Shown here: positions 1 through 27,808 of the stretch, in pieces
Layout: the number at the start of each line of letters is the position of its first letter
Position numbering within the stretch: the stretch's first letter is position 1
Source of the DNA: Nitrospira sp.
GTDB lineage: Bacteria; Nitrospirota; Nitrospiria; Nitrospirales; Nitrospiraceae
Assembly (NCBI GenBank): GCA_037142015.1
Contig: JBAXBK010000023.1
Span: 1-32,000, forward strand
Direction: 5' to 3'
Length of the DNA stretch: 32,000 bases
Notes under the pieces: generated by a model
What the model was told of the DNA's origin: nothing
The model's input: only the letters and a program-made list of their open reading frames with translations
The model's database searches: none
Position numbers and translations under genes: made by a program

Positions 1-10
1 TGGATAACAT
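1..10 (-). CDS. Start of an unidentified CDS running off the left edge (fragment only)
   Basis: Minus-strand ATG at 10-8 is preceded by AGGAGG (complement of 16-21) with 5-nt spacing. The context AACCTAGGAGG-N5-ATG is the same as at the cytochrome gene start (709). Confidence 0.25.
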
Positions 11-109
11 GGGAACCTCCTAGGTTAAATGTGAAAACAACGACACCCCTTTCTAATACGTTCACCGGAGATTTTTCAGGAACGATCCGTATCGGTTAAG
101 AGGGCTAGG

Positions 110-709
110 TCAGTCCTTTTCTTTCTTCTCTTCCTTCAACACCATCATGCCCTGCGCTTTACTGGCATTGAGGTCGCTCTCCGGGACTTTCTTATGCACC
201 AGGTTCTGATGGCAATCGATGCAGGTGGCCCCCTCCGTTTCCATCTTCATGTGCGCGGCCTTCGCCGATGCGCCAGGCGGCTTGGTATTCTTGTGGCACT
301 CCCGGCAGGTGACGCTGTCCCAGTTTTTGAGCGACATGCGCGCATAGTGGGCCATGATCGGCCGGCGCTCATTGAACTTCTCGATCGTCGAGTAGTCATA
401 TTTCATCTCCGCGAGCACGGCCCGCGTTCCGTCATACATGTGCGTCCATAGAGCCAGGTGGAAGTTACCCAGGCCCTGGGGAACGTGACAGTCCTTACAG
501 CCAGGGTCGGCCCCGAGCGCGCCATAGTGCGAGGACTTCTTCAGCTCTTCATATGGGTAGGTCTGGGAATGGCAGCTTACGCAGAACTCGGTCCTGGAGA
601 GGGCGTGCTCCCCGCCGAATACCACGGCGATCGCTCCGACTATAAGAACTGCACCTAGGAGGAGGGCGCCACCCGACAGGCTCAAGTATTGCCTTAATTT
701 CCCCACCAT
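110..709 (-). CDS. NapC/NirT-family membrane-anchored tetrahaem cytochrome c (quinol dehydrogenase type)
   Basis: 199 aa with an N-terminal TM helix (LLLGAVLIVGAIAVVFGG). Four CxxCH motifs are present (CVSCH, CKDCH, CRECH, CIDCH). AGGAGG lies 5 nt upstream of the ATG and overlaps the stop codon of the upstream ORF. Confidence 0.85.
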   Translation of the reverse strand: MVGKLRQYLSLSGGALLLGAVLIVGAIAVVFGGEHALSRTEFCVSCHSQTYPYEELKKSSHYGALGADPGCKDCHVPQGLGNFHLALWTHMYDGTRAVLAEMKYDYSTIEKFNERRPIMAHYARMSLKNWDSVTCRECHKNTKPPGASAKAAHMKMETEGATCIDCHQNLVHKKVPESDLNASKAQGMMVLKEEKKEKD

Positions 710-718
710 GATTGCCTC

Positions 719-1039
719 CTAGGTTTTATGTTCACTGTTCGCAATAATGGGGGCTGATAATCTTGGTGAACCGCCCGCCCTGCCGACCGACACGCGGTAC
801 TCTGAGGGATAAACGGCGGTCAACGAAACTTTTTCCGCCCGGCTCAGACGGTCCACTGACAAGAAGACTTGCCCCCATCCGATGCCCGTCAGCATGGTGT
901 GACCTTCTATTGTTTGTGCCCCTTTCCGCCTAAGCAGCAGAAGCACTTTTCGATCAACTGATTGTGAATTGGAAAGCTGTGCGACTGCATGACTCCCGAT
1001 CTGCTCAGCGCTCGCTTTCTCTGTGAATGCTCTTGCCAT
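719..1039 (-). CDS. Hypothetical protein (106 aa), first gene of the cytochrome operon
   Basis: I prefer the start at MARAF (ATG 1039), which has GGAGG 5 nt upstream. Its stop TAG is embedded in the RBS of the next gene. I recognise no motif and there are no Cys residues. Confidence 0.45.
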   Translation of the reverse strand: MARAFTEKASAEQIGSHAVAQLSNSQSVDRKVLLLLRRKGAQTIEGHTMLTGIGWGQVFLSVDRLSRAEKVSLTAVYPSEYRVSVGRAGGSPRLSAPIIANSEHKT

Positions 1040-1088
1040 GATTACCTCCATGAATTACGTGTTCAATGTTTGCATCATGTATGTCTAA

Positions 1089-1117
1089 TGTATAAACCAT
1101 GTTGTCCAATATGTCAA
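1089..1117 (-). promoter_or_regulatory. Candidate sigma70-type promoter for the 1039<-110 operon
   Basis: On the minus strand: TTGACA (1117-1112), 17 nt spacer, TATACA (1094-1089). This lies ~45 nt upstream of the ATG at 1039. Confidence 0.4.
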
Positions 1118-1136
1118 GTGTTATAGTAATATATAT

Positions 1137-1165
1137 TTGACAAACATTGGACATTAAGATACAAT
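1137..1165 (+). promoter_or_regulatory. Near-consensus sigma70 promoter for the MerR/B12 regulator
   Basis: TTGACA (1137-1142), 17 nt spacer, TACAAT (1160-1165). The ATG at 1177 follows 12 nt after the -10 box, implying a leaderless or very short-leader mRNA. Confidence 0.55.
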
Positions 1166-1176
1166 CAACAATAAAT

Positions 1177-2100
1177 ATGAATATTCATAGAATTCACAGA
1201 GTTGCGAAACTGACCGGCCTCTCGAAGGATGTGATTCGCGTCTGGGAGAGGCGATATGGGCTTGTCAAACCTTCACGGAGCTCCAATCGTTATCGTGAAT
1301 ATAGCGACGAGGAGGTGGCACTTCTCCGTTTTGTAAAGGCGCAGATGGAACAAGGGGCCACGATCGGTGCACTCGCAACGGAGGGACACGATCAGCTTGT
1401 CGCACGCATGCGTATTGCGACTCCAGTTTCTGCAGAGGATCAGAAACCTCATGAGCGTCTGTTAGATGATTTGATGGGATCGCTTGATCCGCTCGATAAG
1501 GCAGGATTCGAACGCAAACTCAACGGCGCAGTGGCCGTCATTCCGTTCGATGAAGCCGTCCAGCGGATTCTGCTCCCACTGCAACGGCAAATCGGCGAGC
1601 TGTGGCACGAAGGTCGATTGAATATCGCAGTCGAACACTATGTGACGAAGATCATCCAACAGAAGTTGTTTTCAGTGATGAATCAGCTTCCGGTGAATGA
1701 GTTCGGCCCGCGAATCCTGATCGCCTGCCCGGAAGGCGAAACCCATGAGATCGGGGCCCAAGCCGTGGCCTACATCGCGGCGACCAGAGGATGCCACGTG
1801 TATTATCTCGGGCCGAACCTTCCCAATTCAGATCTCGTGATCTTCTGCGAGACGATCAAGCCCGATCTCGTACTGCTCTCTCTCACTGAGGTAAGACCCG
1901 AGGCCGCGGCGCTCCAACAGCTCAGGGACCTTGAGCAGCTTGCCAACCGCTGGTCTGTGGCTGTCGGTGGCCAGGGCGCTCGTGCTCTTGGAGATCGCCT
2001 TCGTGATACCAAGATCGAATTGCTCGATGATCTCACCGCACTCCACAGCCGCCTGACGATTCTTCTTACAACCCGCATGCTTGCCGCTCGTGCCCGATAA
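1177..2100 (+). CDS. CarH/LitR-type MerR-family transcriptional regulator with an adenosylcobalamin-binding photoreceptor domain
   Basis: N-terminal MerR HTH (IHRVAKLTGLSKDVIRVWERRYGL). LWHEGRLNIAVEH is an exact Wx9EH motif. ETHEIG matches E/DxHxxG at the start of a Rossmann-like B12 domain (ILIACPEGETHEIGAQAVAY...LVLLSLT...VGGQG). The start is moved to ATG 1177 because of the promoter position. Confidence 0.8.
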   Translation: MNIHRIHRVAKLTGLSKDVIRVWERRYGLVKPSRSSNRYREYSDEEVALLRFVKAQMEQGATIGALATEGHDQLVARMRIATPVSAEDQKPHERLLDDLMGSLDPLDKAGFERKLNGAVAVIPFDEAVQRILLPLQRQIGELWHEGRLNIAVEHYVTKIIQQKLFSVMNQLPVNEFGPRILIACPEGETHEIGAQAVAYIAATRGCHVYYLGPNLPNSDLVIFCETIKPDLVLLSLTEVRPEAAALQQLRDLEQLANRWSVAVGGQGARALGDRLRDTKIELLDDLTALHSRLTILLTTRMLAARAR

Positions 2101-2187
2101 AGAACTCGCGCAGCCGCATTGGAGTTTGGGCAAGAAGACGACTGATGCGGCGCATAAATTGTCTGGAGAAACATGGCGACACTCGTG

Positions 2188-2216
2188 TTGACGCATATGC
2201 TGACGAGCAGTAGGAT
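2188..2216 (+). promoter_or_regulatory. Possible promoter upstream of amoC
   Basis: TTGACG (2188-2193), 17 nt spacer, TAGGAT (2211-2216). It would give a ~155-nt 5' UTR. This is a motif match only. Confidence 0.3.
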
Positions 2217-2376
2217 GAAAATAAGCTTGTTGCCGATTAATTTCAGGGGAACGGCCCAGCAGAGCCGGGCGCTGTAGCCCCGAGGCTGTAATTCCAAACC
2301 TACGAGGAGGTGGATACAGGCTTTCACTACCAATTCAGAGGGGTGTTTCTTGGGTGTGCGAAAGGAGGTCAGGACC

Positions 2377-3177
2377 ATGGCGAGTACAACAACATTGGGA
2401 GGGAGCGACCGCGGGTACGACATGTCGCTCTGGTACGATTCGAAGCCGCTCAAGATTGGCTGGTTTGCCATGTTGGCGGCGGTGGGGTCGGAGGTCGTGT
2501 TTCAACGGGTCTTCGGGTATTCCCACGGCTTGGACTCCATGACGCCGGAGTTCGAGAATGTCTGGATGGGCCTGTGGCGGTTTAACGTGATCTCCAACAT
2601 CATCTTCTCGGCGGCCACGCTGGGTTGGATTTGGAGCACGCGGGATCGCAACGTGGCCAACGTGGATCCCAAGACCGAGCTCAAGCGGTATTTCTACTGG
2701 ATGATGTGGCTCGCCATTTATGTGTTCGGCGTGTATTGGGCCGGCTCGTATACCCTGGAGCAGGATGCCTCGTGGCATCAGGTGATCATCCGCGACACCA
2801 GCTTCACCGCCAGCCATATCATTGCCTTCTACTTCACGTTCCCGCTCTATATCACCTGTGGCGTGGCGAGCTACCTGTATGCCATGACCCGGTTGCCGCA
2901 GTTCAGCAAGGCGGTCTCCTTCCCCTTGGTGGGCGCCATCGTGGGCCCGATGATGATTCTCCCGAACGTGGGCCTCAACGAGTGGGGCCATGCCTTCTGG
3001 TTTGTGGATGAACTGTTTGCGGCGCCGTTGCACTGGGGCTTTGTGACCCTGGGCTGGTGCGGGTTATTCGGAGGGACCGGCGGTGTGGCGGCGCAGATCG
3101 TGGCCCGCATGTCCAACCTGTGCGATGTGGTCTGGAACAACGAGAGCAAGGATTGTTTGCATGTGATTCCGTACTAA
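2377..3177 (+). CDS. amoC: Ammonia monooxygenase subunit C (AmoC/PmoC family), stand-alone copy
   Basis: 266 aa from MASTTT, with AGGAGG 7 nt upstream. Long blocks are near-identical to bacterial AmoC as I recall it: [60 protein letters not shown]. No amoA or amoB is adjacent. Confidence 0.93.
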
Positions 3178-3290
3178 GTCGTGCCGGTGGTGTCGGTGGG
3201 CTGGCCCTGTGCTCCGGATTTTGAAGTAGGGGGTCGGCTAACCGGGCGGCAGGACTGAGAGAGAGACCGTCGGCGCACTCAGTGCCATCT

Positions 3291-3335
3291 ACGGGCGACC
3301 TCCTACCATGGTAAGGGGTCGCCCGTGTTATTTGG
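3291..3335 (+). terminator. Rho-independent terminator candidate after amoC
   Basis: A 10-bp stem pairs ACGGGCGACC (3291-3300) with GGTCGCCCGT (3317-3326), followed by GTTATTT. Confidence 0.5.
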
Positions 3336-3520
3336 ATCGTGAATGAACCGAAGCATATTCTAAAGTCGGTGGCCTGGGAACTAGAACACCATGAATCGAT
3401 CGTTCCCTGTAAAAACAGTAAAACGCGGGTCACGCTTGTAAAGGAGTCAATGTTGTATCAGGAAAATTGCGTGTGGCAGCGACGGAAGGGGCAAAGCATG
3501 AAGAGCGTGGGAGCCTCGTA

Positions 3521-3542
3521 TGGTGCCGAAGGCGGGATTTGA
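3521..3542. repeat. tRNA-distal att core (duplicate of the tRNA-Leu 3' end)
   Basis: 22/22 identity with 27722-27743. Identity stops on both sides of the repeat. Confidence 0.8.
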
Positions 3543-4096: not shown

Positions 4097-4322
4097 CCCG
4101 CACTATTCATGAAAGTTCGTCGCGAAATGGCGGAGTGGCGCGCGACAAGCAAGACGTGCGCGACAGTCGCGACTCGAAGTTCCGGGTTCGAAGTTCCAAA
4201 ACCACGAACTTCGCAGCTCGAACCGTCGTCCGTCTCACCTGTCGCGCTTTCGCGCCAGTCTCGTCCGTCTCGCTTGAGTCAGGCATCCGCGCTTGCAGCA
4301 GGACCTTCATGAATAATGCGGG
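4097..4322. mobile_element. MITE (226 bp) with IS1380-type termini
   Basis: The termini are CCCGCACTATTCATGAA (4097-) and TTCATGAATAATGCGGG (-4322), matching at 16/17 as an inverted repeat. They match the ends of the IS at 13197-14896. The element is flanked by a perfect 4-bp duplication, TTAG (4093-4096 and 4323-4326). Confidence 0.7.
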
Positions 4323-4554
4323 TTAGAGCAATTTGTCCTGTGGAAAAAGGGTATGTTTGGGTAGAAGAATCGGCGATGTCTGAGAAGACTGGCTGCACGA
4401 AAGATGGGAAACGAGTGACATTGTCAGAAAGGAAGGAAGCTGTAAATTCCATTTGGTAGCGGGCAGACTCCCCGCAATCATCCGTAGCAATCACACCTTA
4501 TCCCCCCCATTGTGTTATAGACGGTTTCCGGGGTCCGCGCGATACTAAGCCATC

Positions 4555-5949
4555 ATGCGTACCATCTCCTTCATAATTCTCCTGTCCGCACTCGTTCTCC
4601 CCACCGTTGCCTTTGCGGAGATGCAGACTATCAGCGCCACGCACACCTACATCCTGGGCGACCATGACAGCAAAGACGACGCCCGCCAGCGCTGCGACCT
4701 TGAAGCCAAACGCAAGATACTAGAGCAAGCGGGTGTCTATATCGAAAGCGTGTCCGAAGTGAAGAACCTCGATCTCACCAAAGACAAGATCACCTCGTTT
4801 GCCGCAGCCGTCATGCAAGTAAAAGACACCAAGGAAGATGTCAGCTTCAAGCAGGGGCACATGACACTGACGCTCAAGCTCACCGCACAGGTGGATCTTG
4901 TAGAGGTGCGTAAACAACTTGCCGCTCGCCAGCTTGATGCGGGTGTGCGGGATACTGTGGCTGCTCAGCAAGACCGACTAAAGTACCTCGAAGCACGGCT
5001 TGAAGCCATGCAGCAACAGGAAAAGCAAGCACCTGGGCAGAGGACCATCTCTACAGCGAATGTCATCTTTACAGCCGCAGATGTGCAAATGGTGCGTACA
5101 CAAGCAGCCCGAGGCGACAGAGAGGCGCAGGCCATGCTCGGGAACCTGTACCACATGGGAAACGGCGTCCCTCAGGACTATGTCCAAGCGCGGCAGTGGT
5201 ACGAGAGAGCGGCTGCTCAGGGGCATGCAGTGGCGCAGGGCAACCTCGCTGTAATGTATAGGGTCGGACAGGGCGTCCCGCAGGATCATGGGAAGGCGCG
5301 GCAGTGGTACGAGAAAGCCGCTGCTCTGGGGAATGGAGAGGCGCAGGCTCGCCTCGCTGTAATGTATCACATGGGGCAAGGCGGGCCGCAGGACTATGCG
5401 CAAGCCGCGTACTGGTTCGAAAAAGCCGCTATCCAGGGAGGCGTAGAGGCACAAGTCATCATTGGGAATTTGTACGTAGAAGGAAAGGGCGTCTCCCAGG
5501 ACTACGTCAAGGCGCGGCAGTGGTACGAAAAAGCCGCTGCCCAGGGCAACGATACTGCGCAGTATTATCTTGGGTTGTTCTATAACAACGGGGGAGAGGG
5601 GATCCAGCAGGATTACGTCCAAGCAATGCAATGGTCCGAGAAAGCCGCTGCCCAAGGCAACCCGTTTGCGCAGGCCGCTCTTGGGAGTAGATACTACTTT
5701 GGAGGAGATGGCGTCGCGAAGGATTATGTACGCTCTTACCTGTGGTCCAGTCTTGCCGCACGCAATGAGGGAGTGCAACTTCCAGTAGCAGAGGGAGTGC
5801 AAGTTCCATTAGGTTCCGTTATGCAATCAATTCTAGTAAGGCTCGAAGGGACGATGACGCCTCAGCAGCTTCAGGAAGCACGGCAGTTAGTTCGAGACTG
5901 GAGGCCGAAGAAAGAGAACACACGACCTTCCCTATTCAGCGGGTTTTAG
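4555..5949 (+). CDS. Secreted Sel1-like repeat (SLR/TPR-type) protein
   Basis: 464 aa with a signal peptide (ILLSALVLPTVAFA). There are at least 6 tandem Sel1 units of the form G.GV.QDY..A..WYEKAAAQG...AQ..LG.MY. Confidence 0.85.
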   Translation: MRTISFIILLSALVLPTVAFAEMQTISATHTYILGDHDSKDDARQRCDLEAKRKILEQAGVYIESVSEVKNLDLTKDKITSFAAAVMQVKDTKEDVSFKQGHMTLTLKLTAQVDLVEVRKQLAARQLDAGVRDTVAAQQDRLKYLEARLEAMQQQEKQAPGQRTISTANVIFTAADVQMVRTQAARGDREAQAMLGNLYHMGNGVPQDYVQARQWYERAAAQGHAVAQGNLAVMYRVGQGVPQDHGKARQWYEKAAALGNGEAQARLAVMYHMGQGGPQDYAQAAYWFEKAAIQGGVEAQVIIGNLYVEGKGVSQDYVKARQWYEKAAAQGNDTAQYYLGLFYNNGGEGIQQDYVQAMQWSEKAAAQGNPFAQAALGSRYYFGGDGVAKDYVRSYLWSSLAARNEGVQLPVAEGVQVPLGSVMQSILVRLEGTMTPQQLQEARQLVRDWRPKKENTRPSLFSGF

Positions 5950-6615: not shown

Positions 6616-6652
6616 CTGGCATATCGAGCAGGAGCGAGTCGTCACGCTGCAT
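6616..6652 (-). pseudogene. Truncated HEPN (DUF86-like) toxin gene stub
   Basis: An ATG at 6652 overlaps the MNT stop by 11 nt, as is usual for MNT-HEPN pairs. It reads [12 protein letters not shown] and then runs straight into the MITE terminus. No HEPN-like continuation is recognisable left of the MITE. Confidence 0.4.
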
Positions 6653-6959
6653 ACACAGCTTCCATGTGGGAGAGAATGTGCTTGCGCCTGATGTAGTTGC
6701 GGCTTTCCTCCACCAATCGTTTTTCAACCAGATCAACCACTCGTCCAAACAACGTCTCTAACTCCTCCTTCATATCCAGCAGATGGTCAACCCCCCAGTC
6801 TGAATCGGGGCTGAACGTCACCAGCACATCCACATCGCTGTCCGGACGGAAATCCTCTCGGAGCACGGAGCCGAAGAGAGCCAGCTCGGTAATCTTCCAT
6901 TTTTGGCAGAAGGCCGTAATCCTGTCTTTCGGCACCATAATCTGAATCTTACCGCTCAT
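6642..6959 (-). CDS. Minimal nucleotidyltransferase (MNT-type antitoxin, NTP_transf_2 fold)
   Basis: 105 aa carrying [20 protein letters not shown], which matches the GS-x9-11-DxD nucleotidyltransferase signature. Confidence 0.8.
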
Positions 6960-7882: not shown

Positions 7883-8179
7883 GGTTCTGACCTCCCCGTC
7901 GTGGCCGGCACCAGGTTCACTGGCATGAGAGACCACGTTGTATGTTTATTAGAACCGATGGATTCTTTCACATACAGTCTGCTTACGCATACAGCCCTCT
8001 TTTGAGAGCGTACGCCACAGAGCTCTTTTCTTTCTTTTCACCTGGATACGGACGTGATGGATTATGCGCTTTCCATGGTTCAGTTTTTGCTCAGCCCTAA
8101 CGTGCATCTCGTTCATGCCGGGAAATAATTGTTGATTCCCGGATCTCTGAACTTCTGAAACATTTATGGGGAGGACGCC

Positions 8180-9784
8180 ATGTCGCATCGTCGCAAGAAA
8201 TTCCTGTCGGTCGGGCTAGCAGGAGTGCTGTGTTCTACAGCGCTGCTCGGCTTCACTGCGGCACACGCTGCTGGAGAAAACAATCTGCACCTTCCCGGCA
8301 TGAAGGACCGGCCTCATTCTCCGGAGAATTCTTTTACGCGCATGTTTTCTGAATTGCCGCCCTTCGCTCCGCCGACCGATGCCGCGCGTGATCAGGCTAA
8401 GAAGCTGGGTGAAAAAGGGGGCCTCATCGACGCGTTGGATATCCTCAGCGATCCCATCAAGTCGATCACGGAGCCCCTGGTGTTCAGTCCGAATAATCCC
8501 GATAATCCCAACATGACGGCCGGCGTGACCTTCTTCGGTCAGTTCCTCGACCACGATGTGACGCTCGATCCAAGATCTCCGTTGCTCGAACGGAGCAACC
8601 CCCAAAAGACGACGAACTTTCGCACCGCGGCGTTCGATCTGGACAGCGTGTATGGTGATGGGCCCGAAGCATCCCCGCTGTTGTATGACCTGAGTTCCGG
8701 CGATATCAAGCTGCGCGTGGAACCCATACCTGGTTCGGCGCAGGTCTCTCGCAAAGGAGCGATCCGGTTCGACCTCCCGCGTGATTCCTACAATCACGCC
8801 ATCCTCGGAGACAGCCGGAACGACGAACACGTGATCCTCGCTCAGTTCCACTTGGCAGTCCTGCGTTTTCACAACGCGGTGATCGACCACTTGCGTAAGG
8901 ATCCCGCGCTTGCCGATCAATCGGCTGAGCGGATCTTCAAGCTGGCCCAACGTCAGGTCCGCTGGCACTATCAGTGGATCATCTTGCACGAATTCCTCCC
9001 GCTGACGATCGGGCAAGAGCGCGTCGATGACATCCTCAATAAGGGGCTCCGCTTCTACGAGGTGGACAAAAAGAATCCGTTGATTCCCATCGAGTTTTCA
9101 GTGTCAGCCTACCGCTTCGGCCATTCGCAAATTCGTCCGAGCTATCGTCTGAACTTCGGCCCCACTGGTGGATCGCCGTTCTTCGCGTTCGTCTTCGACG
9201 ATACCCAGGATCCCAACAATCCGGACCCGCCCGACCTGCGTGGCGGGAAGCGCGCGCCCAGGCGGTTTGTCGACTGGCAAACGTTTTTCAATTTCGGCGA
9301 TGGCAACTTCCGGCCCAACAAGAGGATTGACGGCAAACTTTCCAGCGTGGTGATGTTACTTCCAGGCTCACGTGGGCCTGCTCCTGGTCTGCCGGCCGAT
9401 GGGGTGCAGTCGTTGGCCTCACGCAATCTGATGCGTCACGTCAATTTCGGGATACCGTCCGGCCAGGCAATTGCGCGGAGGATGGGCGTACCGGCATTGA
9501 CCGCCGTTCAGCTGGATGCGCTCACGCCTTTTGGCATGGAGAAGAGCACGCCGCTCTGGTTTTACATTCTGAAGGAGGCGGAGCTCATGGAGAATGGTCT
9601 CCGTTTAGGACCGGTGGGAGGCCGCATCGTCGGTGAGGTGTTTATCGGCTTGCTGAAGGCTGATGACACGTCCTATCTGGCTGCTCAGCCAAACTGGATA
9701 CCGGTACTGCCGTCTGCGACACCCGGCGAGTTTCGTATCACCGATATGCTGACTTTTGCCGGGGTGGTTCCACCGCTGAACTAA
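8180..9784 (+). CDS. Secreted haem peroxidase of the peroxidase-cyclooxygenase ('animal haem peroxidase') superfamily
   Basis: 534 aa with a Sec signal (LAGVLCSTALLGFTAAHA). The distal-His motif FFGQFLDHD and proximal-His motif AYRFGHSQIRP are present. GGGGAGG RBS. Confidence 0.85.
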   Translation: MSHRRKKFLSVGLAGVLCSTALLGFTAAHAAGENNLHLPGMKDRPHSPENSFTRMFSELPPFAPPTDAARDQAKKLGEKGGLIDALDILSDPIKSITEPLVFSPNNPDNPNMTAGVTFFGQFLDHDVTLDPRSPLLERSNPQKTTNFRTAAFDLDSVYGDGPEASPLLYDLSSGDIKLRVEPIPGSAQVSRKGAIRFDLPRDSYNHAILGDSRNDEHVILAQFHLAVLRFHNAVIDHLRKDPALADQSAERIFKLAQRQVRWHYQWIILHEFLPLTIGQERVDDILNKGLRFYEVDKKNPLIPIEFSVSAYRFGHSQIRPSYRLNFGPTGGSPFFAFVFDDTQDPNNPDPPDLRGGKRAPRRFVDWQTFFNFGDGNFRPNKRIDGKLSSVVMLLPGSRGPAPGLPADGVQSLASRNLMRHVNFGIPSGQAIARRMGVPALTAVQLDALTPFGMEKSTPLWFYILKEAELMENGLRLGPVGGRIVGEVFIGLLKADDTSYLAAQPNWIPVLPSATPGEFRITDMLTFAGVVPPLN

Positions 9785-9845: not shown

Positions 9846-10125
9846 ACCACGAAACACATACGTCCGCTAGGCATCCCCTGCCAGTTAGGCTGCAAACCTG
9901 CCGAAGGATGGTCGGACTCGTTCGAAGATCGTTCACATAACAATGGGGTAGCGTTCGACATCCCCCGCGCGATTGATCCTGGCGGGAATCTTATGCAGCC
10001 TACTAAAAGGGGGGGTTGACAATGACCCTCACGCGGGAGCAGCTTTTCGCGTGTTGGATGGGCGTGTCAAGACAAGGGAAAGCCGCGCCACGTCATGGCT
10101 ACGTAACACAACATCCCCGTTCGTA

Positions 10126-11799
10126 ATGGAGACAACCGTGGGCATATCACGACGAGATCTACTCCGCTGGGGAATTGTCATCGGGGGGGCCGCGATGCTC
10201 CCGGACGGCCTGCGTCCCCGTCTGGCTCGCGCCGACGACCTGCCGTCAAGCCCGCACACCGACCCTTTCCTCATGGAACTCAGGGTCGGACAGGGGATCC
10301 CACCCGTTGCGCAGCCGGTGACGCCGTTCAACACCCTGGCGGACCCGGGAATCTGCGTGAACGTGGACGGGTCGACCGCCTTCCATGTGAGTCCCCCGCG
10401 CAAGGTCCCGGCCAACACCGAGTTCTTCCTCATCCACGAAAGACCCCTGTCGCACTCGTTCTCCCCCCAGCTGCCGAAGAACATCCTCTGGGGCTATGAC
10501 GGCATGATCCCCGGGCCCACGATCGTCGCGAAGAACGGGACACCGCAGCTCGTCCGCTTCGTCAACGATTTGCCGATGAACGACCCGGTAGGCATCGGCG
10601 AGCCCATCAGCGCCATTCACCGCCATGGAGGATTTCAGGCGTCACAGGACGACGGATACCCGCTCGATACCTTCTGTACGAAGCAGTCGAGAGATTATTT
10701 TTACCCGAACGTGCCGGCCGATGGCCTTGAGCAGAATCTGCACTCGACGCTCTGGTACCACGATCACGCCATCGACATCACAGGGCCGAACGTCTACCGC
10801 GGACTCTCCGGCTTCTATCCCAACACGAACTACCTCGACACCGGCGACGAAGCGACTGGACTTCAGCTCCCCGCTAACTTTTACAAGGGCGCTCCGGTCG
10901 GACCGTTCGACATCGGGCTGGTCTTCCAGGATCGCCAGTTCAACCGAGAGGGCTACCTCGTCTACAACACATTCGACCATGACGGGTTCATCGGCGACAA
11001 GTTCTGCGTCAATGGCCTGATCCAGCCGTATCTCAGGGTGCAACGGCGCAAGTATCGCTTCCGGTTCCTGAACGGCTCGAACGCCCGGGTCTACCAGTTC
11101 TTTCTCAGCACCGGAGACCCGTTCGTCGCCATCGGCACCGACTCCCTCCTCCTCCCCCACCCGGTGACCGTGCAGAGCGTCCGCATCGCTCCCGCCGAAC
11201 GGGTGGATGTGGTGATCGATTTCACGCACTACCAGAATAATTCAGAAGTGTTCCTGGTGAATCGTCTGCAGCAGACCGATGGCCGCAAGCCTAGCGACCT
11301 CGTGTCGCCAGGCACCCCCATCCTCAAGTTCGTCGTAGGCGATAAGCCCGCGTTCGACCCGAGCCAGGTTCCCGCGACACTGCTGCCGGTCACGGAGGGT
11401 CCGGCCCAGTTGCTGCCACAGGTGAAGATCCAGCGCCGGTTCAAGGCTGAACGATCCAACGGGGCGTGGGTGATCAACGGCGAGTTCTTCGACGAGAATC
11501 GCATCAATGCCCGACCGAAGCTCGGCGAGCCGGAGATCTGGATTTTGGAATCGGGCGGCGGTTGGGTGCACCCGTTCCACGTCCACTTAAGCGATTTTTT
11601 CACTCTGTCGCGCGACGGGAAGACGCCTCCGCCGCTGGAGAGAGGCCGAAAGGACACCATCCTGATCGGCGGAGATGTGGCGAGGGAGACGAAAATTCTG
11701 ATCAAGTTCGACGGATTCACGGGCCGCTACGTGTTTCACTGCCACAACATCGAGCACGAAGACATGCGGATGATGGCGCAATTCGAAGTCGTACCATGA
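10126..11799 (+). CDS. Tat-exported multicopper oxidase (CotA/bilirubin-oxidase-like three-domain type)
   Basis: Twin-arginine signal (SRRDLLRWGIVIGGAAML). Copper motifs HRHGG, LWYHDHA, HPFHVHL and HCHNIEHEDMRMM are present. The start is moved to METTVG (10126), just before the Tat signal. Confidence 0.9.
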   Translation: METTVGISRRDLLRWGIVIGGAAMLPDGLRPRLARADDLPSSPHTDPFLMELRVGQGIPPVAQPVTPFNTLADPGICVNVDGSTAFHVSPPRKVPANTEFFLIHERPLSHSFSPQLPKNILWGYDGMIPGPTIVAKNGTPQLVRFVNDLPMNDPVGIGEPISAIHRHGGFQASQDDGYPLDTFCTKQSRDYFYPNVPADGLEQNLHSTLWYHDHAIDITGPNVYRGLSGFYPNTNYLDTGDEATGLQLPANFYKGAPVGPFDIGLVFQDRQFNREGYLVYNTFDHDGFIGDKFCVNGLIQPYLRVQRRKYRFRFLNGSNARVYQFFLSTGDPFVAIGTDSLLLPHPVTVQSVRIAPAERVDVVIDFTHYQNNSEVFLVNRLQQTDGRKPSDLVSPGTPILKFVVGDKPAFDPSQVPATLLPVTEGPAQLLPQVKIQRRFKAERSNGAWVINGEFFDENRINARPKLGEPEIWILESGGGWVHPFHVHLSDFFTLSRDGKTPPPLERGRKDTILIGGDVARETKILIKFDGFTGRYVFHCHNIEHEDMRMMAQFEVVP

Positions 11800-12518
11800 A
11801 TGTCATGTGGCTCGTAACCCTTCTGCTGCTGTTGGCCGGCTCCGGGTGCTCGGAGCGGATCTTCAAGCACACGACTGACGTCTCGCCCTCAGCCGGACCG
11901 CCGAATCGGACGGCCCTCATCCGCGCGGAACATCTTCCCAACATCGAACTCACGACCCACGAAGGCCGGGTGGTGCGCTTTTACGAGGATCTCGTGAAAG
12001 GCCAGGTCGTCGCAATCAACTTCATGTTCACCACCTGCGGCAATACCTGTCCGCTCATCACCGAACACCTGGCCGCGGCACAGAAGGCCCTGGGCGAACG
12101 TATGGGCCATAGGATCACGCTGCTCTCGATCTCCCTTGAGCCGGAGCACGATACTCCGGAGAGGTTGCGGGAATATCGGCAGGTTCGCGGTGTAGGCCCG
12201 GAATGGATCTTCCTCACCGGGCGGCGTGACGATATTGAGTTCCTGCGGCGGCGTCTCGGCGTGTATGACCTGGACCCTGTCATCGACGCCGATCCGTCGC
12301 AACACGCCGGGATCGTGATCCTCGGTAACGAGCCGCAAGGACGTTGGAAGGCGATCTCGGCGCTGTCACACCCGATCCGTATCCGTCAGGCGATGGAGCG
12401 GACCATTCTGCCGACGAGCCAGTGGCCCACAGGGGAAACCGTCGTGAACGAGGTCCCGTCCCAGGACAACGAAGCGGTCGAAACCGCCGACCTGTCCATC
12501 CTGCCGTCGATCAAGTAG
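11796..12518 (+). CDS. SCO1/SenC-family copper chaperone lipoprotein
   Basis: ATGA overlap with the multicopper oxidase stop. Lipobox LLLAGSGC. Thioredoxin-fold CxxxCP motif (FTTCGNTCP) and a downstream conserved His (SQHAGIVILG). Confidence 0.85.
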   Translation: MNVMWLVTLLLLLAGSGCSERIFKHTTDVSPSAGPPNRTALIRAEHLPNIELTTHEGRVVRFYEDLVKGQVVAINFMFTTCGNTCPLITEHLAAAQKALGERMGHRITLLSISLEPEHDTPERLREYRQVRGVGPEWIFLTGRRDDIEFLRRRLGVYDLDPVIDADPSQHAGIVILGNEPQGRWKAISALSHPIRIRQAMERTILPTSQWPTGETVVNEVPSQDNEAVETADLSILPSIK

Positions 12519-13196: not shown

Positions 13197-14896
13197 CCCG
13201 CATTATTCATGACTGATGGTCAGCGGGGCAGCGGCCGCCATGCTGGAGAAGCCGACGACTCTTTTGCCCCTGTCGCGGTCGCTGATGGCAGCGATAGGGC
13301 ACTACGTTCTCTGTTCGGAGTGAACTGGTGGTCGTCGCACGTCCTGCGCGGGAGATTCAGGACACACGTCTCCTGTCGGATCTCTCTCCGCCACCTTCCT
13401 GCAGACGTACTGACGTGTGGTTCACCTGGTACCGCGCCAACGGCCACGGCCACTCGGTGCCAGGTCGTGCCCCAAGGCGCCGAACTGGGCAGGTGCAGCA
13501 CGATGCGGCGCACCGAGCGTTCCACCCAGACCGCCAGCTTGAGCAACCGCTCCCGTAGTGTGGAGACTTGTGCCGTGGCACAGTCCGTCCCGTGGGCCTG
13601 TTGCCGCAACGCCTGTCGCACCACATACGCCGCGGCTGTCAGCAGCACGCGGAATTGGTTCGCCCAGAACCGCGAACAACTGGTGCGGTCCAGCGCTAGC
13701 CCGTGATGCAACTCCTTCAGCCGGTTCTCCATGTCGCCACGCTGACAGTAGATGGTAGAGACCGCGGCGGGCGCGTCACGGAAATTCGTCACCACGAAGC
13801 GCGGATTGCATTTGGGTTCATGTCCGGGCCGACGGACGACCTCCGCCTTGATGATGACGCGTCGACGATGCGACCAGCTTTGGGCCGCATAGAGGGTCTC
13901 TCCGTAGACGTGCTCCGTGCGGCCACTGTACTTCGACAGGCCGTAGGCCTCGCCCAGCAGGCGCCCGGCGCGCCGCTCCAGCCGAGGGTTGCACGCGAGC
14001 CCCACCACATACTCGACTCGCTCCGCTTCCAGGAAGTCCAGCCAGTCGTTCCCGGCAAAGCCCCCGTCCACGCGCACCCGCACCGGGGTGCCGGGAAACG
14101 TCCGCCGCAACTGACGGAGCAGGGTCCGCAGCAGCCCGAACGCGCCGTGCTTCGCCGGACTGTTGCCCGGTCGCAGGACGATCGCCACCAGATACTGGTC
14201 CGTTTCGTCGTTGAACGTCAGCGTCGCGACCTGCGGCAGATAGCACCACGTGTCATAGTGCCCATTGAAGAACGCCAGCTCTTGCTGCCCATGCGTCGGG
14301 TCGTCCGTGGGATCCAAATCGATCGTGATCCGCTGGGCGCGGCCTTTGAGCCGGTGGCGATGCTGCGCGATCACCGTCGACGCCAACATCCGCCCCATCC
14401 GGTACAGGGCTCGTGGGCTGGCGGCATTCTCAAACCGGGAGAGCGTGGGCTGCGAGGCCAAGGCGTCCCCGGTCACCGGGTCGCGCCCCACGGCCAGCTT
14501 GTGCAGGGGATCGTCGGCCAGCCGAGCCGCGTCGTTGGCGTCCTCATATCCACACGCCAGGCCGAAGATGCGCTGGCGCAGCAGGTCGCGGACTGCGTGC
14601 CGGACTTTGTCGGGATCTCGGCGATCGGGCAGGCACGCCGCCAGTTTGTCTGTCAGCTGGAGGCGGTCATCCAGCGCCTTGAGCAACACCAGGCCGCCAT
14701 CCGTGCTAGCATGCGCCTGATCGAATCGGGCGACCGTCTTCGTCTTGGGATAGCATGTGAAGGTCAGTTGCGGTATACACGCTGTGGCCATTGGGTCTCC
14801 TGTGTGCTGTGCGTAGAAACGTCTGAACACCGCTCCTATAGCACAGTTTGGAGACTCGATGGCCTTTTTTCTTGCCAGAGTCATGAATTATTCAGG
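13197..14896 (-). mobile_element. IS1380-family insertion sequence (1700 bp)
   Basis: Imperfect terminal inverted repeats begin with CC: CCCGCATTATTCATGAC (13197-) and GTCATGAATTATTCAGG (-14896). The flanks are TTAG and CTAG. It contains a single DDE transposase ORF. Confidence 0.8.
13220..14791 (-). CDS. IS1380-family DDE transposase
   Basis: Family-typical blocks are present: STDGGLVLLKALDDRL, GYEDANDAARLADDP, ASQPTLSRFEN, ITIDLDPTDDPTHG, RVDGGFA, YCQRGDMENRLKEL, FWANQ. The start is taken at MATACIP. Confidence 0.8.
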   Translation of the reverse strand: MATACIPQLTFTCYPKTKTVARFDQAHASTDGGLVLLKALDDRLQLTDKLAACLPDRRDPDKVRHAVRDLLRQRIFGLACGYEDANDAARLADDPLHKLAVGRDPVTGDALASQPTLSRFENAASPRALYRMGRMLASTVIAQHRHRLKGRAQRITIDLDPTDDPTHGQQELAFFNGHYDTWCYLPQVATLTFNDETDQYLVAIVLRPGNSPAKHGAFGLLRTLLRQLRRTFPGTPVRVRVDGGFAGNDWLDFLEAERVEYVVGLACNPRLERRAGRLLGEAYGLSKYSGRTEHVYGETLYAAQSWSHRRRVIIKAEVVRRPGHEPKCNPRFVVTNFRDAPAAVSTIYCQRGDMENRLKELHHGLALDRTSCSRFWANQFRVLLTAAAYVVRQALRQQAHGTDCATAQVSTLRERLLKLAVWVERSVRRIVLHLPSSAPWGTTWHRVAVAVGAVPGEPHVSTSAGRWRREIRQETCVLNLPRRTCDDHQFTPNRERSALSLPSATATGAKESSASPAWRPLPR

Positions 14897-21625: not shown

Positions 21626-22201
21626 TCAGCGTGTAACCTGTAATGCCTTGTGGACATAACTCGGACTCGCCCCCACCTGTTTCGCAATCGCACGAATACT
21701 CAACCCCTGTGTTTTGAGATTCATGATTCGTTCCGTGTCCATCTGTAACCCTGGACGCCCAATCTTCTTCCCCAACGCTTTGGCACGTCGCAACCCACCT
21801 TTGATCCGTTCCACGATAATGTTGCGTTCCAACTCTGCCACTGCTGCCACAATCGTAAACATAGCCTTCCCTAGCGGGGAGCTGGTATCGATATTTTCCT
21901 GATAGGAGATAAACTCGATCCCGAGATGCCGCAACTCCTCCAAGGCTGTGATTAAATGCTTGGTGGAGCGTGCAAAGCGATCGAAACGCCAGACCAGCAC
22001 CGCGTCGAACTTCCGTTTGCGGGCATCGGCCATGAGTTCATCGAGAGCTGGCCGTCGTTCCTTGGTGCCGCTGATCCCGGTATCGCAATACTCACGATAG
22101 ATCGTGAAGCCCCGCTGCGTGCAGAAGGCCTGGAGATCGGCCAACTGCATCGCGACGGACTGATCGGCGGTCGAGACTCTACAATAGAGGGCGATCATCA
22201 T
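21626..22201 (-). CDS. Small serine recombinase (resolvase/invertase family)
   Basis: 191 aa with the catalytic N-terminus ALYCRVSTADQ, the block VWRFDRFARS, and a C-terminal HTH (GLSIRAIAKQVGASPSYVHKAL). Confidence 0.9.
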   Translation of the reverse strand: MMIALYCRVSTADQSVAMQLADLQAFCTQRGFTIYREYCDTGISGTKERRPALDELMADARKRKFDAVLVWRFDRFARSTKHLITALEELRHLGIEFISYQENIDTSSPLGKAMFTIVAAVAELERNIIVERIKGGLRRAKALGKKIGRPGLQMDTERIMNLKTQGLSIRAIAKQVGASPSYVHKALQVTR

Positions 22202-23017: not shown

Positions 23018-23353
23018 TCACACTATTTGTTGAATCACATTCGATTCATGAATCCATCGCAGATGATCTTCATGCCACACCAACACCCATCTCCCTCCCC
23101 TGGTACAATCAACGACATGAACGATTGCAGGACCACACAAATCTTCGCCTGATTTCCACATCACTACCGCGCCTTCGATCAGTTCCCCTGGAGAACCATG
23201 GTCTGGATCACTGAGGACTCGTACCTTTCCACTAGCCTTTTCGAGAACTTTCCATGCTTGTTCATCAGAGAAGTACACCGGGTATCCTGGTACCAGGTGT
23301 ACGGCCCTGTCAGGAAACACAATGCAAAGAGGTCTGAGACCTTCAATCAACAA
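23018..23353 (-). CDS. Hypothetical protein (~105-111 aa, non-ATG start uncertain)
   Basis: The ORF continues downstream of the ATPase gene. The only starts after that gene's stop are TTG (23353/23350) or GTG (23320). Confidence 0.35.
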   Translation of the reverse strand: MLIEGLRPLCIVFPDRAVHLVPGYPVYFSDEQAWKVLEKASGKVRVLSDPDHGSPGELIEGAVVMWKSGEDLCGPAIVHVVDCTRGGRWVLVWHEDHLRWIHESNVIQQIV

Positions 23354-24680
23354 TGATGACTTCCTCCTCCAGTTCGAGATTCGATTCGTCCATACCCTCC
23401 CCCCTAGGATGGGAGTTCGGACGAATCGGTTTTCTAAGGTGATATGTGAATGGGGCACCCTTGTGGCCGCTGCCTTCGCGAACCACCTGCATCCCAAGGA
23501 TATCGATTGCGCGAGAAACATCCTGTTTGCTCAAACCTGTGGACTCGACGATCTCGTGAATTGTGCGGGGGGTCTGATCTAACACCGCGAGGACTTGTTC
23601 AGTTTTTTCTTGTACAGAGACCTGCGCCGGTGAACCCATGGCTTCATATCCGTTTTTCCCATAACGGATTACGAGTTCTTTGGGCGTCTGCGAAAAACGG
23701 GAGACGGATTCCAGCACTCGCTCTTGCGGATCGCCTGGACGGCGTTTCATTGAAATGGCGATATCGACCAGACCGAGAAGGGCGGAGGAACCGCGAATTT
23801 CATCTCCACCTTCCCCACCTGATTTCCGCGTATGCACAAGGCAGAGCCACGCGGCTTTGGTCTGGCGGATCGCATTGAGTAGCATTCGACCGGATCTGAG
23901 CACTTCCGAGGCGTCATTTTCATTCTCCAAATGCCACCATGCGGGTAACGTATCGACCACCACTAACCCGATATCGTGCGCAGCTACGTATTCAACGATA
24001 TCGCGAAGTACGTTCACCGAAAACTCCAGGGGGCCTGTCACTACTTTGATTTGACCTTCTAATCCTTCGACACCCTGCTTTTGAAACCGGCGGATCACAT
24101 CGTCGGAATGCTCTTCAACTGCGAGAACCAGCACCTTGACCTGGCGAACCTTACGCCCGAGGCAGGGTAGTCCACGTGCCACATGTACGATTGCTTCATA
24201 CGCAGCGGTGGTTTTGCCAATCTTTGGCGGACCTGCTTTGGCCGTCAACCGCCTCGGAGCTAAGTAACCGTGGACGAGCCAATCAATTTCCTCTTGAGGC
24301 TTCTGTAGCAATTCGCCAAGATCTTCGGGATTGAAGCCTGAATTCGATTCGTCCAGACTCCCACTCTTAGGGTCTGACTTTGGACGAATCGAAAATGATC
24401 TGGCAGGAGTGTAGCGGGCACCACTTGCCGCGATACTTTTCACCTCGTAATCCGGCAACGGGGGATCACACATTTCTGAGTTGTGTGAAAGAAGAGCTGA
24501 TTCAATTGTCTCTTGGTTGCAACCAAAATGCCGCATGGCCGCACCTAGTTTAAAAAGCGAATCGTTTCTCTGCCCTTCGGGGATACACCCAGACTCTTTT
24601 TGCTGCCGTGTGCCCGGTTGCTCCCGGCTCAAATGCGCGAGAGAGTCCGGAAATTTTGCGAACTCGGTTACATTATCCAT
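23343..24680 (-). CDS. PriCT-like domain + RecA-like (AAA_25/RepA-type) ATPase + C-terminal wHTH; replication helicase-like partner of Prim-Pol
   Basis: IPEGQRNDSLFKLGAAMRHFG...CDPPLPDYEVKSIAAS is PriCT-like. Walker A is GPPKIGKT and the Walker B-like block is LVVVDTL. The C-terminus carries an HTH (IHEIVESTGLSKQDVSRAI). The start is taken at MDNVTEF (24680). Confidence 0.75.
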   Translation of the reverse strand: MDNVTEFAKFPDSLAHLSREQPGTRQQKESGCIPEGQRNDSLFKLGAAMRHFGCNQETIESALLSHNSEMCDPPLPDYEVKSIAASGARYTPARSFSIRPKSDPKSGSLDESNSGFNPEDLGELLQKPQEEIDWLVHGYLAPRRLTAKAGPPKIGKTTAAYEAIVHVARGLPCLGRKVRQVKVLVLAVEEHSDDVIRRFQKQGVEGLEGQIKVVTGPLEFSVNVLRDIVEYVAAHDIGLVVVDTLPAWWHLENENDASEVLRSGRMLLNAIRQTKAAWLCLVHTRKSGGEGGDEIRGSSALLGLVDIAISMKRRPGDPQERVLESVSRFSQTPKELVIRYGKNGYEAMGSPAQVSVQEKTEQVLAVLDQTPRTIHEIVESTGLSKQDVSRAIDILGMQVVREGSGHKGAPFTYHLRKPIRPNSHPRGEGMDESNLELEEEVIIVD

Positions 24681-25171
24681 TCGTACTCTCCTGCAACATG
24701 CTTGGATGGTGGGGCTACGACATAGCCTCCCTCGCCTTTCAGATCGAGGCCAGGTTGCATACCGATGCGATTCTTCACCGGGTAGCCAGGGTGGAGAAAG
24801 TACAGATGCCGACCCCGTCGCGTCTTGACCTCGAAGGTCACCGGCAAGTTCAGGCTCTTGACGTTTTCTTCGCCATCCGGGCCATCGATATCCAGAACCA
24901 CAATCCCCGATGCGGCTCCAGTGACGATTCCGACGTTGCTGTTTGGCCATTGTTTCCACCACGAACGAATGGTCGCCCGGTCGCATGAAGCGTAGTCCTG
25001 CCACATATTGAGTCGCGGATGTTTTCCAGGACTTTTGCATTCAGAGTTCCCGCAAGTACAGCGACCATCCTTAGTCATCCCGTGGAGGGGATGGACACGC
25101 CATCCCATGTCGCCATAGACGAGGGCTGCGGCAAGGCACTCAGAGCCTTTTTTAGTTTTCAGTACTGGCAT
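24668..25171 (-). CDS. Bifunctional DNA primase/polymerase (Prim-Pol) N-terminal domain protein
   Basis: GWRVHPL...CTCGNSECKSPGKHPR...NVGIVTG..SGIVVLDIDG...TRRGRHLYF...GLDLKGEGGYVVAPPS matches the Prim-Pol signature. AGAGGA RBS. Confidence 0.85.
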   Translation of the reverse strand: MPVLKTKKGSECLAAALVYGDMGWRVHPLHGMTKDGRCTCGNSECKSPGKHPRLNMWQDYASCDRATIRSWWKQWPNSNVGIVTGAASGIVVLDIDGPDGEENVKSLNLPVTFEVKTRRGRHLYFLHPGYPVKNRIGMQPGLDLKGEGGYVVAPPSKHVAGEYEWIM

Positions 25172-26495: not shown

Positions 26496-26539
26496 CGACA
26501 TGGCTGATCTAACTAGCCTGAATGGAAGGACACTGGCAC

Positions 26540-27721: not shown

Positions 27722-27743
27722 TGGTGCCGAAGGCGGGATTTGA
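27722..27743. repeat. tRNA-proximal att core
   Basis: Identical to 3521-3542. It corresponds to the T-loop through CCA of tRNA-Leu. Confidence 0.8.
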
Positions 27744-27808
27744 ACCCGCACACCCTTGCGGGCGCTAGACCCTGAATCTAGTGCGTCTGCCAGTTTCGCC
27801 ACTTCGGC
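27722..27808 (-). tRNA. tRNA-Leu (anticodon CAG), 87 nt, CCA encoded
   Basis: Manual fold: acceptor GCCGAAG/CTTCGGC, anticodon stem CTAGA/TCTAG with loop TTCAGGG, a long variable arm, T arm GCGGG-TTCAAAT-CCCGC, discriminator A and CCA. Confidence 0.9.

Follow-up and report, generated by a model that had tools for sequence, protein, structure and literature searches.

CarH/LitR-type regulators hold adenosylcobalamin (AdoCbl) in a pocket where it is intrinsically photolabile, and the His that follows the Trp of their Wx9EH motif, a residue that is common but not universal, is the upper ligand of the bis-His photoproduct of CarH. CarH is distinguished from the B12-independent CarA by the combination of the classic B12 motif with an intact Wx9EH motif, and RxWERRY is the mark of the CarH recognition helix (PMC9304148). 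CarH operators consist of 11-bp repeats, nnnnTnnACAn, with the -35 box TTGACA embedded in one repeat, and those of myxobacteria and Bacillus megaterium are plastic in design, combining one to four true repeats with pseudo-repeats (PMC9304148). Here we analyze a regulator gene of this type (1177-2100, plus strand) in a 32,000-nucleotide stretch of DNA from Nitrospira sp. (the window: positions 1 to 32,000 of contig JBAXBK010000023.1, assembly GCA_037142015.1), where it stands between a divergent unit encoding a tetrahaem cytochrome and a stand-alone amoC gene. An earlier interpretation of the letters by themselves, called here the sequence-only reading, had proposed that these genes form a light-gated repair module for ammonia monooxygenase (AMO). 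The reading that we consider likely is that the regulator represses its own gene and the divergent cytochrome unit, and that amoC is a passenger.

A CarH/LitR-family regulator

The predicted protein of 307 amino acids contains, according to Pfam, a MerR_1 domain (PF13411, residues 5-66, E = 1.6e-14), a four-helix-bundle B12-binding_2 domain (PF02607, residues 106-164, E = 8.6e-09) and the Rossmann module B12-binding (PF02310, residues 179-279, E = 3.8e-11). Regular-expression searches located the RxWERRY recognition helix as RVWERRY (residues 21-27), an intact Wx9EH motif as WHEGRLNIAVEH (residues 143-154) in which the Trp is directly followed by His (W143-H144, invariant across 25 homologues), and the sequence ETHEIG, which opens a complete E-x-H-x2-G-x41-S-x-T-x26-GG motif (residues 188-265) with the lower axial His included. 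The best matches to the regulator in the PDB by phmmer are Thermus thermophilus CarH/LitR (TtCarH; E ~2e-33 over residues 3-290, ~31% identity), whose Trp, next His, Glu-His pair and axial His are all in register with those of the regulator. An AlphaFold2 model of moderate confidence (predicted local distance difference test score 72.9) was compared with the PDB by Foldseek, and the top 12 matches were all full-length TtCarH (E 1e-16 to 2e-14), with a TM-score of 0.70-0.75 by target length for the B12 domain. The MerR helix-turn-helix and B12 domain, ETHEIG and exact Wx9EH motif that the sequence-only reading had placed in this gene are all present, and the CarH/LitR-type identity that it assigned is borne out by sequence, by motifs and by the predicted CarH fold. 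The regulator is probably a CarH/LitR-family repressor that depends on AdoCbl and is sensitive to light.

Operator repeats in the divergent control region

Between the regulator gene and the divergent unit are 125 bp (1052-1176) that contain two face-to-face promoters and CarH-type operator repeats. The regulator promoter, PcarH, is close to the sigma-70 consensus (TTGACA at 1137-1142, 17 nt, TACAAT at 1160-1165; 11 of 12 positions agree), and a minus-strand -35 box, TTGACA at 1117-1112, is directed at the divergent genes. On the plus strand, two tandem 11-bp repeats (1133-1154, containing TTGACA and ACATTGGACA) overlap the -35 box and spacer of PcarH; this stretch, whose TnnACA sites (1137 and 1148) follow each other at 11 bp, is the most conserved part of the non-coding sequence. 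On the minus strand, three ACATTGGACA-type 11-bp repeats within 1060-1112 (at 1060-1069, 1082-1091 and 1103-1112, with spacings of 22 and 21 bp) fit the CarH consensus nnnnTnnACAn and cover the spacer, -10 box and leader of the divergent promoter. The motif TnnACA occurs eight times in 1052-1176, compared with 1.66 ± 1.3 times in composition-matched shuffles, of which 0 of 2000 reached eight; two of the sites are tandem over the -35 box and spacer of PcarH, and four have the opposite orientation over the divergent promoter and leader. The core 10-mer ACATTGGACA, allowing up to one mismatch, is found four times in 1060-1153 and once in the rest of the 32 kb.

Conservation of the control region was followed in related loci (designated by L numbers), obtained by a scan of one genome per species that yielded 80 loci with 64-95% identical regulators, each taken with 6 kb on either side of the gene. 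The intergenic region can be aligned in 78 loci, where the columns of the repeats and of the -35 and -10 boxes are at least 90% conserved while identity of the proteins falls to 64%. In 815 kb of loci, ACATTGGACA with up to one mismatch has a density of 19.7 per kb in the 160 bp that precede CarH-like genes, compared with 0.087 per kb elsewhere. A strict spacing of three repeats in tandem at 11 bp does not occur within the window but is found at a second site in L040. There, three perfect ACATTGGACA repeats at exact 11-bp spacing (2369-2401) precede NAD-dependent epimerase genes at a site distant from the regulator gene, which suggests further members of the regulon; this is one of the additional operator clusters located upstream of DCC1-like and NAD-epimerase genes in relatives. 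No cobalamin riboswitch was found in the window, in which a scan with Rfam gave tRNA only. The -10 box of PcarH ends 11 nt 5' of the regulator's ATG (1160-1179) with no Shine-Dalgarno sequence visible, and this spacing is conserved in relatives; the regulator mRNA is probably leaderless or nearly so.

A probable genus-wide regulon

Of the 80 loci, 79 are labelled Nitrospira, Nitrospiraceae or Nitrospirota (one 'uncultured bacterium', one 'uncultured Nitrosospira sp.'). Because the regulator is found in canonical nitrite oxidizers such as N. moscoviensis NSP M-1 (L062) and N. lenta, it is not tied to AMO, and by its distribution the regulator gene is a core gene of the genus Nitrospira. A divergent cluster is conserved in 74 of the loci, beginning with a small Zn-ribbon protein, followed by several secreted proteins with FGE-sulfatase domains and an NAD-binding/DUF2867 protein; genes for SMBP and SDR/DUF2867 proteins also belong to the genus-wide divergent unit. 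In 18 loci a NapC gene (copies 87-97% identical) is directly divergent from the regulator, and is followed by a gene for a cytochrome c-FGE fusion (for example, L030 and L069). This B12-photoreceptor regulon of Nitrospira is the more solid result of the analysis and is apparently undescribed: no paper linking CarH or LitR with Nitrospira or with nitrifier photoinhibition was found in the literature searched.

Several observations count against a light-responsive CarH in this genus. The regulon is without carotenoid genes, and many of the source habitats (sand filters, groundwater, sludge) are dark. Only two of the operator repeats are strictly tandem at 11 bp, the remainder being 21-22 bp apart. 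The regulator scores 146.8 bits against the NCBIfam CarH equivalog NF052513, below its cutoff of 400, and at the positions aligned to R176 and D201, which we take to be the dimer salt-bridge pair of Thermus CarH, it has T (before the axial His, where Thermus has R) and N (at the Asp of 'GPD'). The roles of residues in the salt bridge of the TtCarH head-to-tail dimer, and of Gly residues in tetramer assembly, were reportedly established by Jost and colleagues in 2015; in our alignment one of the Gly positions presumed to act in tetramer assembly is retained and the other is V. Because of the score below the cutoff and the T and N at the presumed salt-bridge positions, the regulator is classified by score and alignment as a relative within the CarH/LitR family and not as an equivalog of the modelled CarH; and because of the same T and N, its oligomer may differ from that of Thermus. 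The dimer and tetramer interface residues of CarH are covered only generally in PMC9304148.

Dark habitats, a regulon of FGE-like, cytochrome, SMBP, DCC1 and SDR genes and not of carotenoid genes, interface residues unlike those of Thermus CarH and a score under the equivalog cutoff would also suit a regulator that binds a corrinoid and responds to a signal other than light, such as B12 availability or redox state, as a B12-dependent but light-independent repressor of a periplasmic redox or metal module. This explanation is improbable, given that AdoCbl in a CarH-type pocket is photolabile by nature and that a photolyase gene occurs in the cluster of L110 described below. It is further opposed by the intact Wx9EH with its next His, the feature that separates the photoreceptor CarH from B12-independent CarA (PMC9304148).

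The divergent unit in this strain

The sequence-only reading had described an operon back-to-back with the regulator, encoding a 106-amino-acid protein (719-1039, minus strand) and a NapC/NirT-family cytochrome (110-709, minus strand). Both genes are present, but in this strain the operon is cut off directly past the NapC gene by an IS5-type DDE transposase gene (PF01609/PF13340), at the place where relatives have the cytochrome c-FGE fusion gene. Within the window is only the 3' end of the transposase gene (1-44, plus strand), which extends past the left edge and was mapped from L081, where the gene lies at 8098-8868 (locus coordinate minus 8824 equals window coordinate). The 199-amino-acid cytochrome is membrane-anchored and has the features of a NapC/NirT tetrahaem quinol dehydrogenase, namely an N-terminal membrane helix, four CxxCH motifs and a match to PF03264 (E = 4.4e-43); it scores far under all NCBIfam equivalog cutoffs (87.5 versus 310.6 bits for NapC/NirT) and is by these scores assigned to no named subfamily (NapC, NirT, TorC or NrfH). 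As the sequence-only reading supposed, control of this quinol-oxidizing cytochrome by the regulator is plausible, being well supported by synteny and by the position of the operator, with repeats over both -35 boxes of the shared 125 bp and NapC directly divergent in the 18 loci mentioned above.

The 106-amino-acid protein, product of the first gene of the divergent unit, has no match in Pfam or NCBIfam even at E ≤ 1, and among the related loci it has homologues only in L001, L002, L020, L024 and L027. Its first ~20 residues (MARAFTE..AEQIGSHA) are shared with the small Zn-ribbon proteins encoded in the same position of other Nitrospira, and the gene looks like a recombinant first gene. Compared with L002 5231-5527, the protein is without the cysteines (CxRCGGLMV...CxxCGE) of the Zn-ribbon proteins that normally open the divergent operon.

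The same genome encodes a second CarH-like paralogue of 305 amino acids (L081 2559-3476), 7.5 kb to the left of the window start. Its divergent unit encodes a small protein, a 162-amino-acid protein, an FGE protein and an SDR/DUF2867 protein, with genes for DCC1-like and Fer2-FAD-NAD reductase proteins downstream. Cross-regulation between the two paralogues is likely because both have the same operator design.

The amoC gene and its transcription signals

The gene at 2377-3177 (plus strand) is a non-operonal amoC encoding 266 amino acids (PF04896, E = 1.4e-105; above the NCBIfam cutoff for bacterial AmoC). The observation that it is a stand-alone gene, 276 bp downstream of the regulator (gap 2101-2376) and in the same orientation, is confirmed by coordinates, and a tblastn search of the 32 kb, with the AmoA and AmoB of a related amoCAB locus as queries, detected neither amoA nor amoB. 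From this arrangement it had been proposed that the regulator gates a spare amoC according to light and B12, for AMO repair; it would do so by co-transcription of amoC with its own autoregulated gene or by direct binding. We consider the proposal unlikely, although it draws on real features of the locus. The two genes are co-oriented, and no canonical terminator was recognized between them (2095-2380; fold z = -1.4, unremarkable), which also speaks against amoC as a pure passenger. The cassette retains only ~50-90 bp of the leader that other amoC copies have in common, so upstream transcription may matter. Activity of comammox bacteria is photoinhibited (PMC9797979), and non-operonal amoC is associated with stress in ammonia-oxidizing bacteria (PMC6311188).

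The case against gating by the regulator begins with the operator, no repeat of which was found in 2101-2376 or, in six loci with complete amoC, within the 300 bp that precede this gene. A weak sigma-70-like site, TTGACG-17 nt-TAGGAT (2188-2216, plus strand; 9 of 12, by consensus match only), together with the conserved leader, suggests that amoC may have its own start. The AmoC protein is 99% identical to the AmoC that heads the amoCAB operon in L086 (from a related population, not the same genome), and thus the spare gene does not qualify as a divergent stress copy of the amoC3 type. The leader contains an element, ...CTTCACTACCAAC..CA.AGGGGTG(T/G)TTCTC..., ~25-55 nt upstream of the start codon (window 2323-2376), which is conserved across ~60 amoC loci (L085-L164) of differing genomic contexts; it could be a structure of the 5' untranslated region or a regulatory site. 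After amoC, by contrast with the gap before it, there is a strong hairpin resembling an intrinsic terminator with a U-rich tail (3291-3335, plus strand; fold of 3170-3345, z = -4.1).

Insertion at a tRNA-Leu(CAG) hot spot

A further argument against light-gated amoC is that the gene belongs to a segment inserted at a hot spot of integration. The regulator block is homologous to the 80 loci as far as 2120, 20 bp past the stop codon, and homology resumes only within the amoC cassette. Of the 241 bp that are strain-specific (2121-2361), the part from 2121 to ~2290 matches only the same strain, and the last ~70-90 bp match weakly, and then only the leaders of other amoC genes. The inserted segment (2121-3520, plus strand, ~1.4 kb) thus extends from the regulator block to a 22-nt att fragment (3521-3542), which duplicates the 3' end of tRNA-Leu(CAG) without a mismatch and is identical to 27722-27743. 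The tRNA-Leu(CAG) gene (27722-27808, minus strand; Rfam) is the ancestral neighbour of the regulator, judging from synteny in relatives, and the site of integration: the distance from the regulator's stop codon to the 3' end of the tRNA is 70-252 bp in 23 related loci, L001 (the closest species, 95%) and N. moscoviensis among them, and 1-3.6 kb, with variable cargo between, in nine further loci. Because a tyrosine integrase gene (26522-27709) lies by the 3' end of the tRNA and the 22-nt att fragment repeats that end perfectly, in direct orientation, at the far boundary, the 24.2 kb between them (3543-27721) are assigned to an integrative island. The amoC segment would be an older remnant in the same hot spot; this reading is tentative because no second att site was found, there being no recognizable remnant of one beside 2120. 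Boundaries and synteny together indicate that the adjacency of amoC to the regulator is a recent, strain-specific rearrangement at a tRNA-Leu integration hot spot, and not a conserved AMO repair module.

How general the adjacency is

Three contigs from three samples (ERZ27300054, JGI 3300020167 and ERZ4222710) share this gene order and encode a 100% identical regulator, and therefore the adjacency is not an assembly chimera. A chimera created from multi-copy amoC might be suspected from the contigs of related genomes that often end at amoC (L037, L049, L050), but it is exceedingly improbable that the identical junction, including the strain-specific 241 bp, would arise in three independent assemblies of different samples. 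Beyond this strain-level population the order is absent: none of the 80 species genomes has amoC directly after the regulator, and among 80 metagenomic amoC loci only the contig of the same strain has the window's order, the 79 others lacking it. Survey of synteny thus fails to uphold a conserved CarH-amoC module, all the more as the regulator and its operator are also conserved in Nitrospira without AMO.

Other arrangements bring amoC near the regulator. In six loci, amoC (AmoC 76-78% identical) is ~1.2 kb downstream of the regulator behind an opposite-strand gene with an Lcl_C domain (complete in L030, L045 and L054; cut by contig ends in L037, L049 and L050), and the intervening gene is a point against gating by the regulator. 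These loci contain no tRNA, which rules out the tRNA-Leu hot spot as the cause of the Lcl_C arrangement, and so the hot spot explains only the window. In one of them (L054 8134-10971, Nitrospira sp. CG24B; one locus only) a gene for an FtsH membrane protease follows amoC on the same strand, a pairing that recalls turnover of damaged subunits. In L002, L011 and L043, amoC (AmoC 97-99% identical) is at the far end of the divergent operon and on the strand of that operon, i.e., behind a CarH-controlled promoter. An amoC 5' fragment of 32 codons fused to a duplicated piece of operator and small open reading frame (L026 5046-5245) is a recombination scar, which implies that the locus is unstable.

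The best case for a real CarH-amoC link is L110. In this locus a promoter with operator repeats lies opposite a paralogue of the regulator (51% identical) and is followed (4219-5795) first by a gene for a 127-amino-acid protein, in which a Zn-ribbon is fused to a C-terminal remnant of FGE, and second by amoC; a DNA photolyase gene (8877-9347) starts ~3 kb past the amoC stop codon. The co-directional position of amoC downstream of CarH-controlled promoters in L110, L002, L011 and L043 favours light-gated amoC and is the other point that weighs against a purely passenger role.

Proposed mechanism and significance

Our model, that of a repressor of its own gene and of the divergent cytochrome unit with amoC as passenger, is built on domain and motif content, similarity of fold, operator-like repeats and their conservation, synteny and the boundaries of the insertion, and from these we infer B12 binding, light sensitivity, repression and transcript structure. 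By analogy with the CarH of Thermus and Myxococcus, a B12-loaded oligomer of the regulator would in the dark bind the TnnACA 11-bp repeats in 1052-1176 and occlude both -35 boxes. The regulator gene and the divergent unit would be repressed by this binding; the unit comprises here the genes for the 106-amino-acid protein and NapC, and elsewhere in the genus those for the Zn-ribbon protein, FGE-sulfatase-like proteins, cytochrome c-FGE fusion, NapC, SMBP and SDR/DUF2867 proteins. Light is predicted to cleave the Co-C bond of the cofactor, upon which the repressor would leave the DNA and both units would be transcribed: the regulator gene, the 106-amino-acid protein gene and NapC, and in the genus also the FGE, cytochrome, SMBP and DCC1 genes. 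As a guess, the FGE-like/cytochrome module would provide a quinol-fed periplasmic redox or repair activity. The amoC gene, which has no operator of its own, may be transcribed by read-through from the regulator promoter, and only in this way would it respond to light; light control of amoC in this strain, direct or by read-through, is doubtful. Thus, of the light-gated AMO repair module proposed at first, the CarH-type regulator stands and control of the cytochrome is plausible, but amoC has no operator and belongs to a strain-level insert.

Photoinhibition of the comammox bacterium N. inopinata is documented (PMC9797979). It is conceivable, though distinctly unlikely, that some comammox Nitrospira have captured a spare amoC behind AdoCbl-photoreceptor promoters (here and in L110, L002, L011 and L043), so that light raises AmoC for AMO repair. 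If this were true, photoinhibition of nitrifiers would for the first time be tied to a photoreceptor at the molecular level; any real connection is best sought in the few genomes where amoC stands behind CarH-controlled promoters. For the original claim the value of the analysis is as a correction, with the amoC adjacency being of strain level and not a conserved AMO repair module. More broadly, nitrifiers are inhibited by light, and the Nitrospira locus offers a concrete candidate for a photoreceptor pathway with a sharply defined operator. The regulator is conserved in nitrite oxidizers and comammox bacteria alike, with a regulon of periplasmic FGE-like, cytochrome, NapC, SMBP and DCC1-like proteins, and the idea of light sensing is testable in the culturable N. 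moscoviensis: do Nitrospira sense light, and what is switched on?

Other cargo of the integrative island

The island has a G+C content that ranges from 0.45 to 0.63. Its cargo includes genes for an animal-haem-peroxidase-like protein (8180-9784), a multicopper oxidase (9973-11799) and SCO1/SenC (within 11466-12518), which together look like a mobile copper and oxidative-stress module, as well as for an insertion-sequence transposase (13220-14884), a resolvase (21626-22201) and a primase/AAA protein (23343-25040). A gene for a Sel1-repeat protein (4555-5949) contains 108-nt tandem repeats (window 5158-5700); in other Nitrospira, Sel1 genes (cluster c5) are found repeatedly among the variable cargo that separates the regulator from tRNA-Leu. 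The Sel1 region is flanked by direct repeats of 30-42 nt that are 79-87% identical (4094-4135/6423-6464 and 4463-4492/6257-6286), with a nucleotidyltransferase gene (6642-6959) just past the distal copies.

Comparison with known systems

Genomic islands that target tRNA genes have a tyrosine integrase beside the 3' end of the tRNA, a direct repeat at the far boundary and variable cargo, all of which were found here; the difference from typical islands of this kind is that the amoC segment lies outside the intact island, with no recognizable second att site. The N. europaea amoC3 is a divergent paralogue under sigma-32 control that responds to stress (Berube and Stahl 2012, as cited in PMC6311188). 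The window's amoC resembles it in being non-operonal with no amoA or amoB nearby, but differs in that its product is nearly identical to an amoCAB-linked copy (that of L086) and in that no stress promoter was identified by a scan restricted to the sigma-70 consensus. With the quinol dehydrogenases NapC, NirT, CymA and cytochrome cM552, the cytochrome at 110-709 has in common the N-terminal membrane anchor, the four CxxCH haem sites and PF03264; unlike the known NapC/NirT systems, its usual partner in Nitrospira is the cytochrome c-FGE-sulfatase fusion and not a reductase or HAO.

The three-module architecture of TtCarH/LitR (PDB 5C8D/E/F, 3WHP) is common to the regulator, as are the RxWERRY helix, the Wx9EH cap with its next His and the lower axial His in the classic B12 motif; the differences are the low sequence identity, the score below the NCBIfam equivalog cutoff and the T and N at the presumed salt-bridge positions. 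In both, the gene is autoregulated (in Nitrospira by prediction) and is transcribed from a divergent promoter region in which TnnACA 11-bp repeats cover the TTGACA -35 box, but the TtCarH repeats are three in tandem, whereas those of Nitrospira are mostly 21-22 bp apart. The operators of myxobacterial and B. megaterium CarH likewise control divergent promoters and overlap -35 or -10 boxes; compared with these, the Nitrospira repeat is a longer, near-invariant 10-mer, ACATTGGACA, that occurs in both orientations around two -35 boxes. Finally, the targets of TtCarH are carotenoid genes, whereas those predicted in Nitrospira encode periplasmic FGE-like proteins, cytochromes and NapC. The Nitrospira regulator is thus a new member, with an unusual regulon, of the well-known class of CarH/LitR regulators.

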